From positions 1 through 64,000 of the forward strand of contig CAWGVG010000046.1 in the NCBI GenBank assembly GCA_963825865.1: a stretch of DNA of 64,000 bases, given 5' to 3'. Each line of letters opens with the position of its first letter. Within the stretch, counting starts at the first letter, position 1. A model generated the notes under the pieces. It worked only from the letters and a program-made list of their open reading frames with translations, was not told the origin of the DNA and searched no databases. The stretch comes from an uncultured Nitrososphaeraceae archaeon (GTDB taxonomy: Archaea; Thermoproteota; Nitrososphaeria; Nitrososphaerales; Nitrososphaeraceae). Made by a program: the position numbers and the translations under genes. Of the stretch, positions 47,408 through 56,362 are shown piece by piece.

Positions 47408-48395
47408 CTAATCCAGTTTGTATTGTATCATGCTTATCCTAAGAAGAAGAGATCTTACAACCTCTGTCCAAGCATTACCAATATTAAGCATATTATATCC
47501 TCCACCACCTAAAGCAATTATTCTTCCGTCACAATGCTTGTGCGCAAGTCGATGTAAGGCATCTGCTGCGTATCTGTGTGCCTTCTGTGTATACTTTAGG
47601 TGTGTTATCGGATCGCCATTTAGGCAGTCTGCACCACATTGCAATATGATTAACTCCGGCTTTGCTACATTATCGATAAATTCATTAATTTTTTTGAATA
47701 TGCCAATAAAATCGTTATCAGTGGAGTTTGGCGCCATAGGTATATTTAATTTGGTGCCTTGTGCTTCGCCTATGCCTGTCTCTAATTCTGAGCCCGTTCC
47801 CGGATATAGAAAGTGGCCATCTTCATGTATGTCTGCAATGAAGAGTAAAGGATCGTCTTCGAATTCGTAATAAACTCCATCGCCGTGATGGGCATCTATA
47901 TCCACATAGGCAATTCTCTTTATACCGTACTTTTTTCTCGCTTCTAGAATTGCGATACCTATATCATTAAAAACACAAAAACCACCAGCAGAATCTCTTC
48001 TTGCATGGTGAAGCCCTCCAATTGGATTGAATGCATGCTCTATTCCATTTCTCTTTTCGAGTACTCAGATCGAGTGCGTTTACAGTAGAACCAACTACGT
48101 AGGAAGAGGCCTCGAATACACCTTTGAATGCAGGGGTGTCACCAGTATCCAAAAAACCCGTTCCATACCGTGAAGCCTTCTTTACAAGATCTACATACTC
48201 TTTATTGTGAAATGACAGTATTGTTTCTTCTTCCGCAAAAGATGGCTCTTTTATCACGACTTGTGTAGATTTGTCAAGGTTCTCATTTTGGATTTTTGAC
48301 CAGAAAGCATAGATTCTATCACAACCCAAAGGATGCGATCCACCAAATCCATATTTGGCTAGTGCTTCTCCAAAAATCACTGCAGTATAACACAT
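47408..48395 (-). CDS. histone deacetylase / AcuC family protein (frameshift near 48060)
   Basis: HPL, GDTP, GGLHHA, GFCVFND, VDIDAHHGDG, YPGTG, QCGAD, GGGGY. Confidence 0.92.
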
Positions 48396-53195: not shown

Positions 53196-53784
53196 TTGAC
53201 AAAAGATATAACTGATCGAAAAGATATACTAATATTAAATATCGAAATGACTGGTACCACCCCTTATTCACGGCGCAATGCTATTCAAGGCACATACCAT
53301 ATAGAATATCTCATGGAAGATGTTCGTGTGATGTATAAACACGACACAAAGGCAGGCTGCAGGCAGTATTGTAATTGATGCAAAAGAAGGCGATATATCC
53401 TCTCTTCCTAGATGGGTAGCAAAAATCTTGGTTGAACAAGGCAACATTGAAATCCAAGATAATGATATTTCAGCGTATGTATCCAGGGCCTTGAACCGTG
53501 AAAGAATAGCAAAACCCCATGATCTATCTGGTCTGGATCCTGATTTCTATATCATAGCTAACGATTATCTTGAAGGATTAAAGGAAAGAGAACGAGAGAA
53601 TCTAGTAGTTTCGCTAAACTCTTTTGTGGCTTCTCGCCTTGAAAAGATTGTAAAATTGGCAGCTGCATCACCGCTTTCGCCAGAACTGGAAGGAAAAGTC
53701 TCAGCAGAAGAAAAAGAACTTTATCTTCAGATCCATCGTTTTTCTTCAGAATTCAAACAGCAGGTGTTAAAGAAATTTGGCTGA
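53196..53784 (+). CDS. DNA replication complex GINS subunit (Gins23-like; frameshifted, start uncertain)
   Basis: LPRWVAKILVEQG, DFY, RLEKIVKLA, AEEKELY; overlaps the mcm start as is typical in archaea. Confidence 0.85.
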
Positions 53785-55866
53785 GCAGCAGCAACATCAA
53801 CAGCAGACCGCAGCAGCATTAGTAAATGAACTAGAAAAATTCCTACGAGCATTTAAGGATAGGGAAGGGAACTACAAATATTTTGATAGAATTAATCACT
53901 TGATGGCTTCTAATTCTATTTCGCTTGTAGTGGATTATATTGATTTTGATTCTTATAATCCAGAGCTCGCTAAGCAAATTACACATAATCCAGATGAAAT
54001 GTTTGATGCATTTAATGAGGCAGTATTTTACATTTTAAACGAAATTCATCCAGATTATGCACATGAAATTCATGAGAACATCAAGGTTAGAATGGGAAAT
54101 TACACTGTACAAAAGGGCTTGCGTGAGATTAATGCCGAGGTGATTGACAAACTGATTGGAGTTTCTGGTATGGTGGTGAGGTCATCTGAAGTAAAGCCAC
54201 TTGCCAAGAAAATAGGATATCGATGCCTGAATTGCAATGCTATTAACGAAACGCATCAAAAAGGGCTGGCTACTGAAGAAACCCCTCAAATGCATAAATT
54301 GTTCGGAAAAAGAGCTGGAAATGGATCCTGAAAATAGTATTTTCAACGACTTTCAAATGGTCAGGCTTCAAGAACTACCCGAGGACCTACCAGCAGGCCA
54401 GCTTCCCCACTATGTTGAAGTCACAGTAATGGGAGACCTTGTAGATCGATGTCGTCCTGGTGATAGAATTATGTTAACTGGGATTATACGAATAGAACAA
54501 GAACAGAGTTCTGCCCAAATAAAAACCAGTCTTTTCAGATTACGAATGGAAGGAAATAATATCGAATATCTTGGTGGGCTGATTAGTAATAATAAGGATA
54601 GCCGAACTGTCGAAAGAATAACTATCAACACTGAAGAGGAAAAACAGATCTTAGCTATTGCAGGCAAATCGGATGCCTATGATAAGCTAATTGCTTCTTT
54701 TGCTCCACATATCTATGGCCACGAGGTAATCAAAGAAGCAATCCTGTTATTGATTGTAGGTTCGGTAACAAAAAAACTTGAGGATGGATCTACAAGAAGA
54801 GGTGATATTAATGTACTATTGGTCGGCGACCCAGGTACTGCAAAATCAGAAATGTTAAAGTTCGCTGCTAAAATTGCTCCAAGAGGACTTTATACTTCTG
54901 GCAGAGGTTCAACCGCTCGCTGGTTTAACTGCAGCGGTAATTCGAGACAAGTCAGGAATTATGATGCTCGAAGCTGGAGCTGTAGTATTAGGCGATCAAG
55001 GGTTAGTATGTATTGATGAGTTTGATAAGATAAAAGCTGAAGACCGCTCAGCGCTGCATGAAGTAATGGAACAGCAGACTTGTTCAGTTGCAAAGGGAGG
55101 TATTGTTGCTACACTAAACGCAAGAACTTCCATTTTATCGGCAGCAAATCCGACATACGGAAAATATGATCCATTTAAGAATATTACTGAGAATGTAAAT
55201 TTACCAATACCACTTTTGACGAGATTTGACCTCATTTATGTGATCAGGGACACTGCGGAAAAGGAGAAGGATAACCGTATTGCTAGACACATTTTAGAAA
55301 TTCATCAATATGCTGAGCACGCAGCACAGCCTGCTATCAGCACTGATCTCTTCAGCAAATACCTTTCATTTTCAAAACAAATTGAACCAAATTTAACCAC
55401 TGACGCAATTGACCTCATTAGAAATTACTACATGAAAATGAGAAACGTCGATTCAGAAGGTATGATTACAGTTACCCCAAGACAACTTGAAGCCCTAGTA
55501 AGATTATCTACAGCACGCGCCAGATTGTTGTTAAGAGACAGAGTCGAATCTGAGGATGCTGAGCGCGCAATCTACCTGGTACAGAGAATGTTAGAAACTG
55601 CAGGAGTCGATGTCAATACAGGAAAAGTAGATTTTGGTGTCATTCATGGCAAACCACATAGCGAAGTTTCAAAGTTGAAGATGTTTATGGAAATTTTCAA
55701 CGCATTGTCGGGACAAGACAGAAATGACGTGGAAGAAAAGAATTTCGTTAATGAACTTGCAAAGACAGGCAAGTTTACGGAAGATGAGGCACGAACCTTC
55801 ATTAAAAAGGCAATGCAAAACGGACAGATATATGAGAGAAAGTCTGGCTTTTACGCTAAAGCATAA
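53777..55866 (+). CDS. mcm: MCM replicative helicase (two frameshifts)
   Basis: Zn finger CLNC..CINC, QELPEDLPAGQLP, RGDINVLLVGDPGTAKS, IDEFDK, AANP, LLTRFD, TPRQLE. Confidence 0.97.
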
Positions 55867-55879
55867 GATATCTGTCTAG

Positions 55880-56028
55880 CTTTTTACTATCAAACACAGT
55901 CTGGACATTGTACCCTGTACATCTCATCACTCTTTCAATCCTACTATAGTTCGATTCAAACTCGATAAAATGATGAAGCGGACAGTTGTTGAGGAGGTCT
56001 TTCAATCCAATCCAACTGAACTTGCAAT
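55880..56028 (-). CRISPR. orphan CRISPR mini-array/remnant: one intact repeat, two partial repeats, two spacers
   Basis: 55932-55961 ctttcaatcctactatagttcgattcaaac (rc GTTTGAATCGAACTATAGTAGGATTGAAAG, ending in ATTGAAAG); 37-bp spacer then ctttcaatcc at 55999; 36-bp spacer preceded by tactat-caaac ending at 55895. Confidence 0.75.
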
Positions 56029-56362
56029 CCAAATGATGTTAGAAGATGCTGGCTATGATTGCATCTCATACACAGACTCACTTAAAGCTCTACAAGAGTT
56101 CAAACCATGTTTTTATGATTTGATTTTACTTGATATCAAAATGTCTGTACTAAATGGATTTGAGCTTTGCAAAAAGATAAGGGAGATTGATAAAACTGTA
56201 CATATCGTCTTTATAACAGCTTCAGAAGCATATTATGAGAAGTTTAGAAGTCAGCACTTTCCAGAGCTAGGCAAGGTTAACTATATTCAAAAGCCAATTG
56301 GAAATGACGAGTTAGTACAAACAGTAAATACGATTATAGGCAATTCAATAACCATTGGCTAG
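55970..56362 (+). pseudogene. response regulator receiver lacking its native N-terminus
   Basis: YDLILLDIKM..LNGFEL, FITA, YIQKPI present; the ILxVDD beta1 motif is replaced by CRISPR-derived sequence. Confidence 0.8.

Follow-up and report, generated by a model that had tools for sequence, protein, structure and literature searches.

A probable inert relic of a type I-B-associated CRISPR array at the edge of a strain-variable island downstream of mcm in a Nitrososphaeraceae archaeon

Directly downstream of mcm, the replicative helicase gene, an uncultured Nitrososphaeraceae archaeon carries one CRISPR-like repeat that is flanked by two spacer-sized segments and by pieces of two further repeats. 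Is this a small array that can still yield guide RNAs, or the remains of a larger one? The first-pass annotation of this DNA favoured a functional trans-acting guide locus and named an eroded array as the alternative. The stretch of DNA analysed here (the window, 64,000 nt) comprises bases 1–64000 of contig C46 of assembly G000, which holds 4.98 Mb on 62 contigs and is 81.8% complete. The results described below argue for the alternative. The element is probably an inert, leaderless relic of an array of the type I-B-associated repeat family that circulates within the Nitrososphaerales, both of its ends having apparently been cut by rearrangement.

The 30-bp unit was found at 55932–55961 on the minus strand, as first annotated; it occurs once in the window and was matched in none of 100 shuffled sequences. 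The element starts 24 nt past the mcm stop codon (55864–55866), so that the position right after mcm was also correct. The features of the locus are as follows.

53777–55866, plus strand: mcm (replicative helicase), with Pfam matches MCM_N/MCM_OB/MCM/MCM_lid
55867–55889, no strand: native mcm 3′ flank with a T-run; the homology of relatives ends here, at the left breakpoint
55890–55895, minus strand: trailer-side repeat stub GTTTGA, the first 6 nt of the repeat, 36 nt from the intact repeat
55896–55931, minus strand: spacer B, 36 nt, no target found
55932–55961 (55961–55932 as read on the minus strand), minus strand: intact 30-nt CRISPR repeat GTTTGAATCGAACTATAGTAGGATTGAAAG, the single whole copy
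55962–55998, minus strand: spacer A, 37 nt; a plus-strand ATG at 55970 begins a chimeric receiver-domain ORF
55999–56008, minus strand: leader-side stub GGATTGAAAG, comprising the final 10 nt of a repeat; 11-nt exact direct repeat
56009–56028, no strand: 20 nt of filler between the repeat stub and the receiver-gene homology, matching the repeat at 7/20 and the paralogs at 4/20 positions
56029–56362, plus strand: 3′ part of a receiver-domain (REC) paralog, its native 5′ end (RILLVDDEPD) missing

Read on the minus strand (56028–55885), the order is the 20-nt filler, GGATTGAAAG, spacer A, GTTTGAATCGAACTATAGTAGGATTGAAAG, spacer B, GTTTGA and TAGTAAAAAGC, the last of which continues toward the mcm stop codon. 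The CRISPR-derived piece measures 119 bp (55890–56008; 6+36+30+37+10). Together with the filler it occupies the entire gap between two unrelated pieces of chromosome.

At least two full direct repeats with regular unique spacers are not present; there is one full repeat, and its neighbours are the 10-nt and 6-nt stubs at the correct 37- and 36-nt spacing. Both stubs are in repeat orientation, GGATTGAAAG after a 37-nt gap upstream of the intact repeat and GTTTGA after a 36-nt gap downstream. Chance occurrence was estimated from genome-wide counts on both strands of the 4.98 Mb (GGATTGAAAG, 36 times; GTTTGA, 3599 times). For a 6-position array-like slot, P was ~2e-5 for GGATTGAAAG and ~2e-3 for GTTTGA. 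These two pieces of the flanking partial repeats reported earlier were upheld; the TAGTA that had been added to the second was not, for reasons given below. The hairpin of the intact repeat is weak (−4.3 kcal/mol, z −1.5). Folding of the 143-nt region gave no excess structure on either strand, and no Rfam family matched positions 55700–56200 at E ≤1.

Large arrays in G026 (a complete genome of 1.6 Mb), G029 and G022, genomes that represent other families of the same order, contain the exact 30-mer (100% identity). The arrays of G003, a member of the same family, carry a repeat variant with 2 mismatches to the 30-mer. Cas6 (TIGR01877) and Cas1 are present in all four genomes. Judged by its match to bona fide arrays in these cas-bearing genomes, the 30-nt unit is a genuine CRISPR repeat, and the CRISPR origin assumed in the first-pass annotation was borne out.

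The cas operon of G003 has the order cas6, an ORF in the cas8b position, cas7 (Cst2/DevR), cas5b, cas3, cas4, cas1b and cas2. The ORF in the cas8b position matched no family, and cas3 consists of HD plus helicase. The operon is of type I-B. It is directly followed by an array with the orientation GTTTGAA...ATTGAAAG, which agrees with the earlier reading of our repeat with ATTGAAAG at its 3′ end. From the orientation of the G003 operon and array, it follows that the leader side of the relic points toward the receiver gene and the trailer side toward mcm. The last repeat of the G003 array is degenerate at its 3′ end; of its sequence, only the first 19 nt remain.

The repeat was also searched for in the genome itself, a check that the first-pass annotation had proposed. 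At up to 3 mismatches there are 12 copies, in groups of 6+2, 2, 1 and 1. The 11 copies other than the 30-mer differ from it by 1–3 bases and follow the same orientation logic. Copies of the repeat family on other contigs are distributed as follows.

C15: a six-repeat array, the largest in the genome, and a two-repeat array
C42: two repeats and a degenerate one
C44: a solo repeat copy
C18: a degenerate repeat copy

The mini-arrays and solo repeats of this genome comprise three repeat variants. At the same threshold of 3 mismatches, the repeat was detected in 40 of 201 sampled genomes of the family, a tally that counts our genome among the 40 and takes in the unpublished genome G088, on which no claim depends. 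Only one or two copies were present in 20 of the 39 repeat-carrying relatives; isolated copies are therefore either common in the family or products of fragmented assemblies.

We compared both edges of the element with the corresponding sequences of relatives. On the left, the mcm 3′ flank GATATCTGTCTAGCTTTTTACTA is homologous to GGCATCTGTCTGGCTTCTTACTA in L012/L050 and to ...TTAGCTTTTTACA in L045, all of them relatives without an array. The pentamer TACTA (55885–55889), which is TAGTA on the minus strand, lies within this conserved flank, e.g. in GCTTCTTACTA of L012/L050 and GCTTTTTACA of L045. Hence, only the 6 nt GTTTGA can be repeat-derived, and TAGTA belongs to the flank of mcm. The homology stops at 55889/55890: none of 69 BLAST rows from the loci of 80 relatives extends beyond 55890. 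In none of these 80 mcm loci, searched with up to 3 kb of flank per side, was the repeat found at ≤6 mismatches.

On the right, nine REC paralogs drawn from G000 and G013 were compared. The alignments of six of the nine begin exactly at 56029. The 5′ end RI(L/V)(L/V)VDD(E/D)PD-x-C-x-x-YQ is kept in 8/9 paralogs; in the copy on C46, the sequence upstream of CCAAAT at 56029 bears no relation to them. The filler at 56009–56028 was considered as a diverged repeat, but it agrees with the repeat of this locus at 7/20 positions and with a variant on C4 at 10/20; neither value is significant, and the idea was rejected. Among genome matches with up to 8 mismatches, no reciprocal repeat halves (the repeat without its last 10 or its first 6 nt) were found.

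From these edges we infer the order and mechanism of the deletions. An array of a mobile type I-B repeat family would once have occupied part of the island that follows mcm. By deletion or illegitimate recombination, it would have lost its trailer side beyond the first 6 nt of one repeat, and its leader side, leader and promoter included, through the first 20 nt of another. The leader-side cut would have been joined to a truncated copy of the expanded REC paralog family at 56028/56029, and the trailer side to the native mcm 3′ flank at 55889/55890. The cas genes would have decayed or been lost, leaving stubs on C18, C22 and C20. Since the central repeat is intact and identical to those of active-looking arrays elsewhere, the relic is presumably young. 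An array eroded in this way fits the evidence, including the lack of a cas locus, which the first-pass annotation had named as the mark of a dead remnant.

The join at 56028/56029 raises another reading, compatible with an origin as a relic, namely that a gene has taken the CRISPR fragment into use as its 5′ end. The ORF at 55970–56362 is open and codes for 130 aa, close to the 132 aa of the stand-alone REC paralog L026. Its start codon and first 20 codons come from spacer A, the repeat stub and the 20-nt filler. D55, T83 and K108 are invariant in the alignment of REC paralogs; we equate them with the phospho-acceptor Asp and with the Thr and Lys of CheY-type domains. The sequence is, moreover, identical in contigs of two studies (see below). 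Against this reading, the Pfam Response_reg (PF00072) match covers profile positions 13–110 of 111 only. β1 is gone, and FQ stands where the paralogs have the acidic DD pair (VDD to VFQ), so phosphotransfer should fail. A complete (βα)5 receiver domain with N-terminal acidic pair and phospho-acceptor Asp is thus not what the ORF encodes. A second 5′-truncated REC copy, on C30, is clearly dead, which makes the truncation look like decay, and the chimeric N-terminus was seen in 0/80 metagenome loci. We regard such an exaptation as unlikely. One may at best imagine a TATA-like promoter in the palindromic, A+T-rich core of the repeat, which lies ~24 nt upstream of the ATG. That CRISPR DNA was recycled both into the N-terminus of the 130-aa receiver ORF and into a promoter at leaderless-promoter distance, with putative expression, seems to us decidedly unlikely.

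Expression of the chimeric ORF would make it a minor instance of CRISPR DNA put to new use as coding sequence, in which a CRISPR spacer and repeat gave rise to the N-terminus and promoter of a REC protein that has lost its phosphorylation pocket and would be phospho-independent. The first-pass annotation had noted that spacer A looks like coding sequence. This impression was not sustained: the ORF starts inside spacer A, and no independent coding signal was found there. In the metatranscriptome X9, contigs cover parts of mcm and positions 56029–56219, and none lies over 55817–56004, although Logan contigs of this kind show neither RNA ends nor strand, cannot demonstrate that expression is absent, and so weigh on neither side. 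The contig at 56029–56219 has a loose end with paralog-type 5′ sequence and therefore derives from another REC copy. A link between the REC family and the CRISPR repeat was likewise considered and rejected. None of 80 metagenome REC loci has a repeat, and a ‘repeat’ on C4, at a distance of 2.7 kb from a REC fragment, belongs to no array and shows 7 mismatches.

Could the element still act as a functional orphan mini-array, transcribed from the minus strand and processed by Cas6 in trans into one or two guides for interference or regulation? In favour of such a role, its repeat is whole, and the exact sequence recurs in arrays of genomes with Cas1 and Cas6. A leader was sought by comparison with other arrays. 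Local alignment of the 150 nt preceding the G003 array with those preceding the six-repeat array on C15 scored 31 (10.8 for shuffles, z 12.6), and the two sequences share the motifs TTTATAAA and GGTTGACCC. Upstream of the C46 relic there is no leader and no conserved promoter motif; the sequence there is the antisense of the REC gene and aligns with no leader.

The first-pass annotation had reported no cas genes in the window. None was found there, and no intact one in the assembled genome. Profiles for Cas1 (PF01867), Cas6_C (PF01881), Cas6 (TIGR01877), Cas2 (PF09827) and RAMPs (PF03787) gave 0 matches in the 81.8%-complete assembly. The controls for Cas1, Cas6 and Cas2 were positive in relatives; RAMPs were absent from G003 and G026 too. 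ORFs of at least 100 aa from the cas loci of G003 and G026 were then used as tblastn queries; cas2 (<100 aa) fell outside these queries and was covered by the PF09827 search. A cas6 fragment (residues 1–69) was recovered at C18:51234-51028, where it ends in stop codons, and cas8b-like fragments (residues 155–532) at C22:7408-8526 and C20:1318-254. For cas7, cas5, cas4 and cas1, tblastn detected nothing in the genome, and for cas3 only weak generic helicase matches. With neither adaptation genes nor Cas6 or effector genes in the assembly, the locus would be expected to acquire no spacers and to give no mature crRNA. A cas operon could lie in the missing part of the assembly. As for the six-repeat array on C15, its conserved leader could point to a recent loss of the system, or to a system that still exists.

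A BLAST search with the spacers, as proposed in the first-pass annotation, revealed no target beyond chance level in the genome itself, phages, plasmids or 238 genomes of the family. In the own genome (blastn-short), the best hit was a 15-nt exact match that does not lie in the seed (E ~0.1, chance level). The 119-bp piece matched none of 50,697 phage records. Among 72,556 plasmids, a 22-nt match was seen to a bacterial plasmid (E 0.3), but it falls inside the repeat portion and was put down to chance. The 238 family genomes were searched twice with spacer-plus-flank queries, and two candidates were rejected as chance or low complexity. One, in G210, matches 28/32 positions over the boundary of spacer B, GTTTGA and flank and lies in a coding gene (E 9.5e-5 per genome, ~0.02 over the whole search). 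The other, in G227, matches spacer A in 33/39 columns with two gaps (E 2.3e-4 per genome); it lies in a conserved host gene beside orc1/cdc6, whose ortholog in our genome (C21) is unmatched. One chance-level row of the spacer A search came from the unpublished genome G180 and supports no claim.

The stubs bear on the same question. By general Cas6 biology, a 10-nt stub should be too short to be a Cas6 substrate and would not define the 5′ handle of a spacer, which leaves the enzyme a single site, the intact repeat. As only 10 nt of repeat remain upstream of spacer A, Cas6 could presumably not define its 5′ end. At most, given antisense read-through and an incoming compatible Cas6/Cascade, one handle-bearing crRNA with spacer B could arise. 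In favour of a working mini-array, the genome is only 82% complete, and Cas6 might be supplied in trans from the unassembled part or by an incoming mobile element. According to PMC6563490, host Cas proteins seem to serve, in trans, the stand-alone arrays that thaumarchaeal integrative elements carry. Weighed against this are the missing leader and promoter motif, a cas inventory of fragments in which cas1, cas2, cas6 and RAMP genes were not found, spacers with no target beyond chance level, a repeat at mcm in 0/80 relatives, and ends that coincide with breakpoints. We consider a functional guide locus very improbable and infer that the relic lacks function.

An assembly artefact, either a chimeric join through a CRISPR repeat or an array collapsed in a metagenome-assembled genome, had also to be considered. 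The assembly does have indel problems. The mcm gene, which relatives have in one frame, is split into three overlapping ORFs by two +1 insertions near 54266 and 54917; the MCM Pfam matches divide cleanly over the three, and the gene on C46 is the only close copy in the assembly. The junctions were examined in soil runs of two different studies, X1 and X3, one of which may be the source sample. Contigs of X3 cover 55768–55918 and 55931–56125 with 0 differences, and those of X1 cover 55835–55904 and 55926–56058, again with 0 differences. Between them, they span one junction from the mcm flank to spacer B and the other from the repeat, by way of spacer A and the stub, to the REC gene. Since contigs of two studies reproduce both junctions, these are no assembly artefact. 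Loose ends of X3 contigs at 55932 and 55963 correspond to the C42 array of the same genome, and hence the same organism was present in X3. One X1 contig lends the artefact some colour, as it has an intact repeat with a different 37-nt spacer in the place of spacer B and another full repeat adjacent. Of the X1 joints, one goes back 37 nt with the different spacer and the other skips 153. These joints could be graph artefacts through the 30-nt repeat at k=31; if the variant spacer is not such a k=31 chimera, some strains have a longer array here. Truncated repeats, besides, are not expected from a chimera, and an artefact is hardly credible.

The relic forms the left edge of a strain-variable island of 11.7 kb between two core genes, mcm and a helicase-like gene. 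The latter (ortholog at C46:67549-69729) has 726 aa here and is conserved at ~730 aa; its label comes from the N-terminal sequence alone. In G013, G016 and G009, the distance from mcm to the helicase-like gene is 1.6, 7 and 6.7 kb, respectively, with unrelated content. Besides several unknowns, the part of the island within the window contains the REC fragment and genes for a glyoxalase-like protein, an SDR, a cupin and an O-methyltransferase. The only PHROG matches in that part are those of the receiver ORF, to families of unknown function, and neither a tRNA nor an integrase was found. A 9.6-kb contig of the soil run X2 agrees exactly with mcm as far as 55864, beyond which its sequence is a different one; X1 has a similar contig (2 mismatches). 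Sister strains therefore differ right at this site.

The element could finally be taken for a Racr-like solitary-repeat RNA anti-CRISPR or a virus-type mini-array on an integrated mobile element, as it has a single intact repeat without cas genes in a strain-variable island, but this is scarcely tenable given that, within the window, the island shows neither an integrase nor a tRNA target, PHROG match or other hallmark of a mobile element, that no matching host cas system is present to be inhibited, and that flanking partial repeats are excluded by the definition of solitary repeat units (SRUs) in the available text of PMC10651486.

The preferred reading, an inert relic, was compared with known systems as they are described in the accessible portions of the respective papers. 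Orphan or degenerate arrays that remain after cas loss (e.g. PMC7145637, as excerpted) are alike in having a canonical repeat family, terminal repeats that have decayed, a few spacers to which no target is known, and no cas genes alongside. Compared with these, the relic is smaller than usual, with one intact repeat, and its ends appear to be cut by rearrangement and not by drift, one of them being fused into a gene. The stand-alone arrays and type I-B systems that integrated elements carry in thaumarchaea (Krupovic et al. 2019, PMC6563490) come from the same phylum and share the type I-B context. Closely related repeats common to distant lineages, and arrays without cas genes, are reported in that paper. 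The arrays described there have 69–96 spacers, lie on recognisable ICE/CIE elements and are accompanied by a host adaptation module with identical repeats, whereas the relic has 2 spacers, no element hallmarks and no cas genes. On what that source describes, these arrays are the nearest biological context, but they are large and served by host Cas.

Three other kinds of small unit resemble the relic in part. Virus-borne mini-CRISPR arrays (Medvedeva et al. 2019, PMC6858448) also have 1–2 spacers and no cas genes; as far as the available text describes them, they possess complete flanking repeats, host-like leaders that bear promoters, a viral location and spacers against sister viruses. Complete flanking repeats, a location on an element, a leader and spacers against related elements were not found with the relic. 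Regulatory mini-arrays and cr-like RNAs (Shmakov et al. 2023, PMC10120712) share a repeat-like unit, a spacer and a degenerate distal repeat, and such units are said in the accessible part of that paper to arise via the recombinogenic nature of repeats. In the same excerpts, they are placed within cas loci or beside them, show conservation among related loci and carry spacers with partial matches to cas promoters. Here, there is no assembled cas locus, 0/80 relatives have the unit beside mcm, and the best self-matches are 15 nt long and lie outside the seed. SRUs, or RNA anti-CRISPRs (Camara-Wilpert et al. 2023, PMC10651486), are alike in the single intact repeat away from cas genes. According to the text available, they lack partial flanking repeats, follow a promoter on a virus or plasmid, and occur in hosts with matching Cas. 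The relic has partial repeats within 100 bp, and neither a mobile element nor a matching Cas was found with it.

The relic is an ordinary leftover of a known kind; its only mildly novel angle is the receiver ORF that begins in a spacer. For annotation, it is a case that CRISPR finders which count repeats would miss, and one that might be over-called as a guide locus if read naively. The relic further documents the decay of CRISPR-Cas in a large-genome soil ammonia-oxidising archaeon of the Nitrososphaeraceae, where mini-arrays, solo repeats, a cas6 stub, cas8b-like fragments and arrays cut at island rearrangement junctions make up the picture. The identity of the repeat with those in arrays of other families fits the mobile-element-borne type I-B systems reported for the phylum in the excerpted part of PMC6563490. 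At the right-hand join itself, the motif CAATCCAA repeats at 56003, 56008 and 56025, a recurrence that may reflect microhomology or slippage.

The Nitrososphaeraceae assembly from which the window comes is an assortment of CRISPR remnants. These comprise three variants of one repeat together with a second repeat family, and the largest array in the assembly has six repeats. Besides the relic between mcm and the receiver-domain (REC) gene, the following remnants and cas gene fragments lie on its contigs (C-numbers):

CRISPR remnants, C15: 55957-56316 and 57640-57736
CRISPR remnants, C42: 5025-5122 and 6109-6138
CRISPR remnant, C44: 35322-35351
CRISPR remnant, C18: 51256-51285
CRISPR remnant, C22: 8658-8753
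CRISPR remnant, C48: 43563-43704
cas6 N-terminal fragment, C18: 51028-51234 (69 residues, 59% identical to Cas6 of G003, a same-family relative carrying a type I-B cas operon)
cas8b-like fragments, two near-duplicates, C22: 7336-8559 and C20: 221-1222 (about 40% identity to residues 155-532 of the G003 protein)

On C18, 21 nt separate the cas6 fragment from a degenerate repeat upstream of it, and a two-repeat mini-array adjoins one of the two cas8b-like fragments. Since the degenerate terminal repeat and the trailer are identical between both C15 arrays, their sequences point to a duplication of the array end.

Contigs from two soil sequencing runs, X1 and X2, were compared with the window at the 3' end of mcm. 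Over the final 565 nt of mcm, an X2 contig was identical to the window and an X1 contig had 2 mismatches; both left the window sequence just past the stop codon (55864 onward). At the species level there are therefore at least two haplotypes here, the relic-bearing junction being one of them, and run X1 contained both it and the diverging haplotype. In a further X1 contig (record 4; 195 nt; window 55926-55962), two full repeats flank a 37-nt spacer that differs from spacer B, and the second repeat is followed by spacer A, the stub (the 10-nt partial repeat of the relic) and REC. The last 6 nt of this different spacer (ATCACT, + strand) are common to spacer B. The contig either represents a variant of the relic locus with a longer array or is a chimera of the k=31 graph.

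REC-domain proteins of about 130-200 aa form an expanded family in this assembly (four matches) and in that of a relative, G013 (at least 10 matches), the copies showing about 80-85% nucleotide identity to one another:

Window: 56029-56362
Other contigs of the assembly: C22: 77611-78240; C30: 5302-5589; C4: 15927-16223
G013: loci L021-L027

Some copies carry an N-terminal extension of 75 aa. Two copies in the window's assembly lack their 5' end, and the one on C4 seems to be cut short at its 3' end.

The window mcm (53777-55866), the sole close copy in the assembly, has two +1 insertions compared with relatives, one following a GGG run near 54266 and the other near 54917, and consequently reads as three ORFs. 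Either the assembly consensus has indel errors at these points, or the gene became a pseudogene very recently. Elsewhere in the window, at 47408-48395, a gene that looks deacetylase-like, the family being guessed from its translation, is apparently split into two ORFs.

In the BLAST output, spacer A gave periodic 11-nt matches to an 18-bp tandem repeat on C27 (125596-126002; at least 23 copies in a run), presumably a coding low-complexity repeat.
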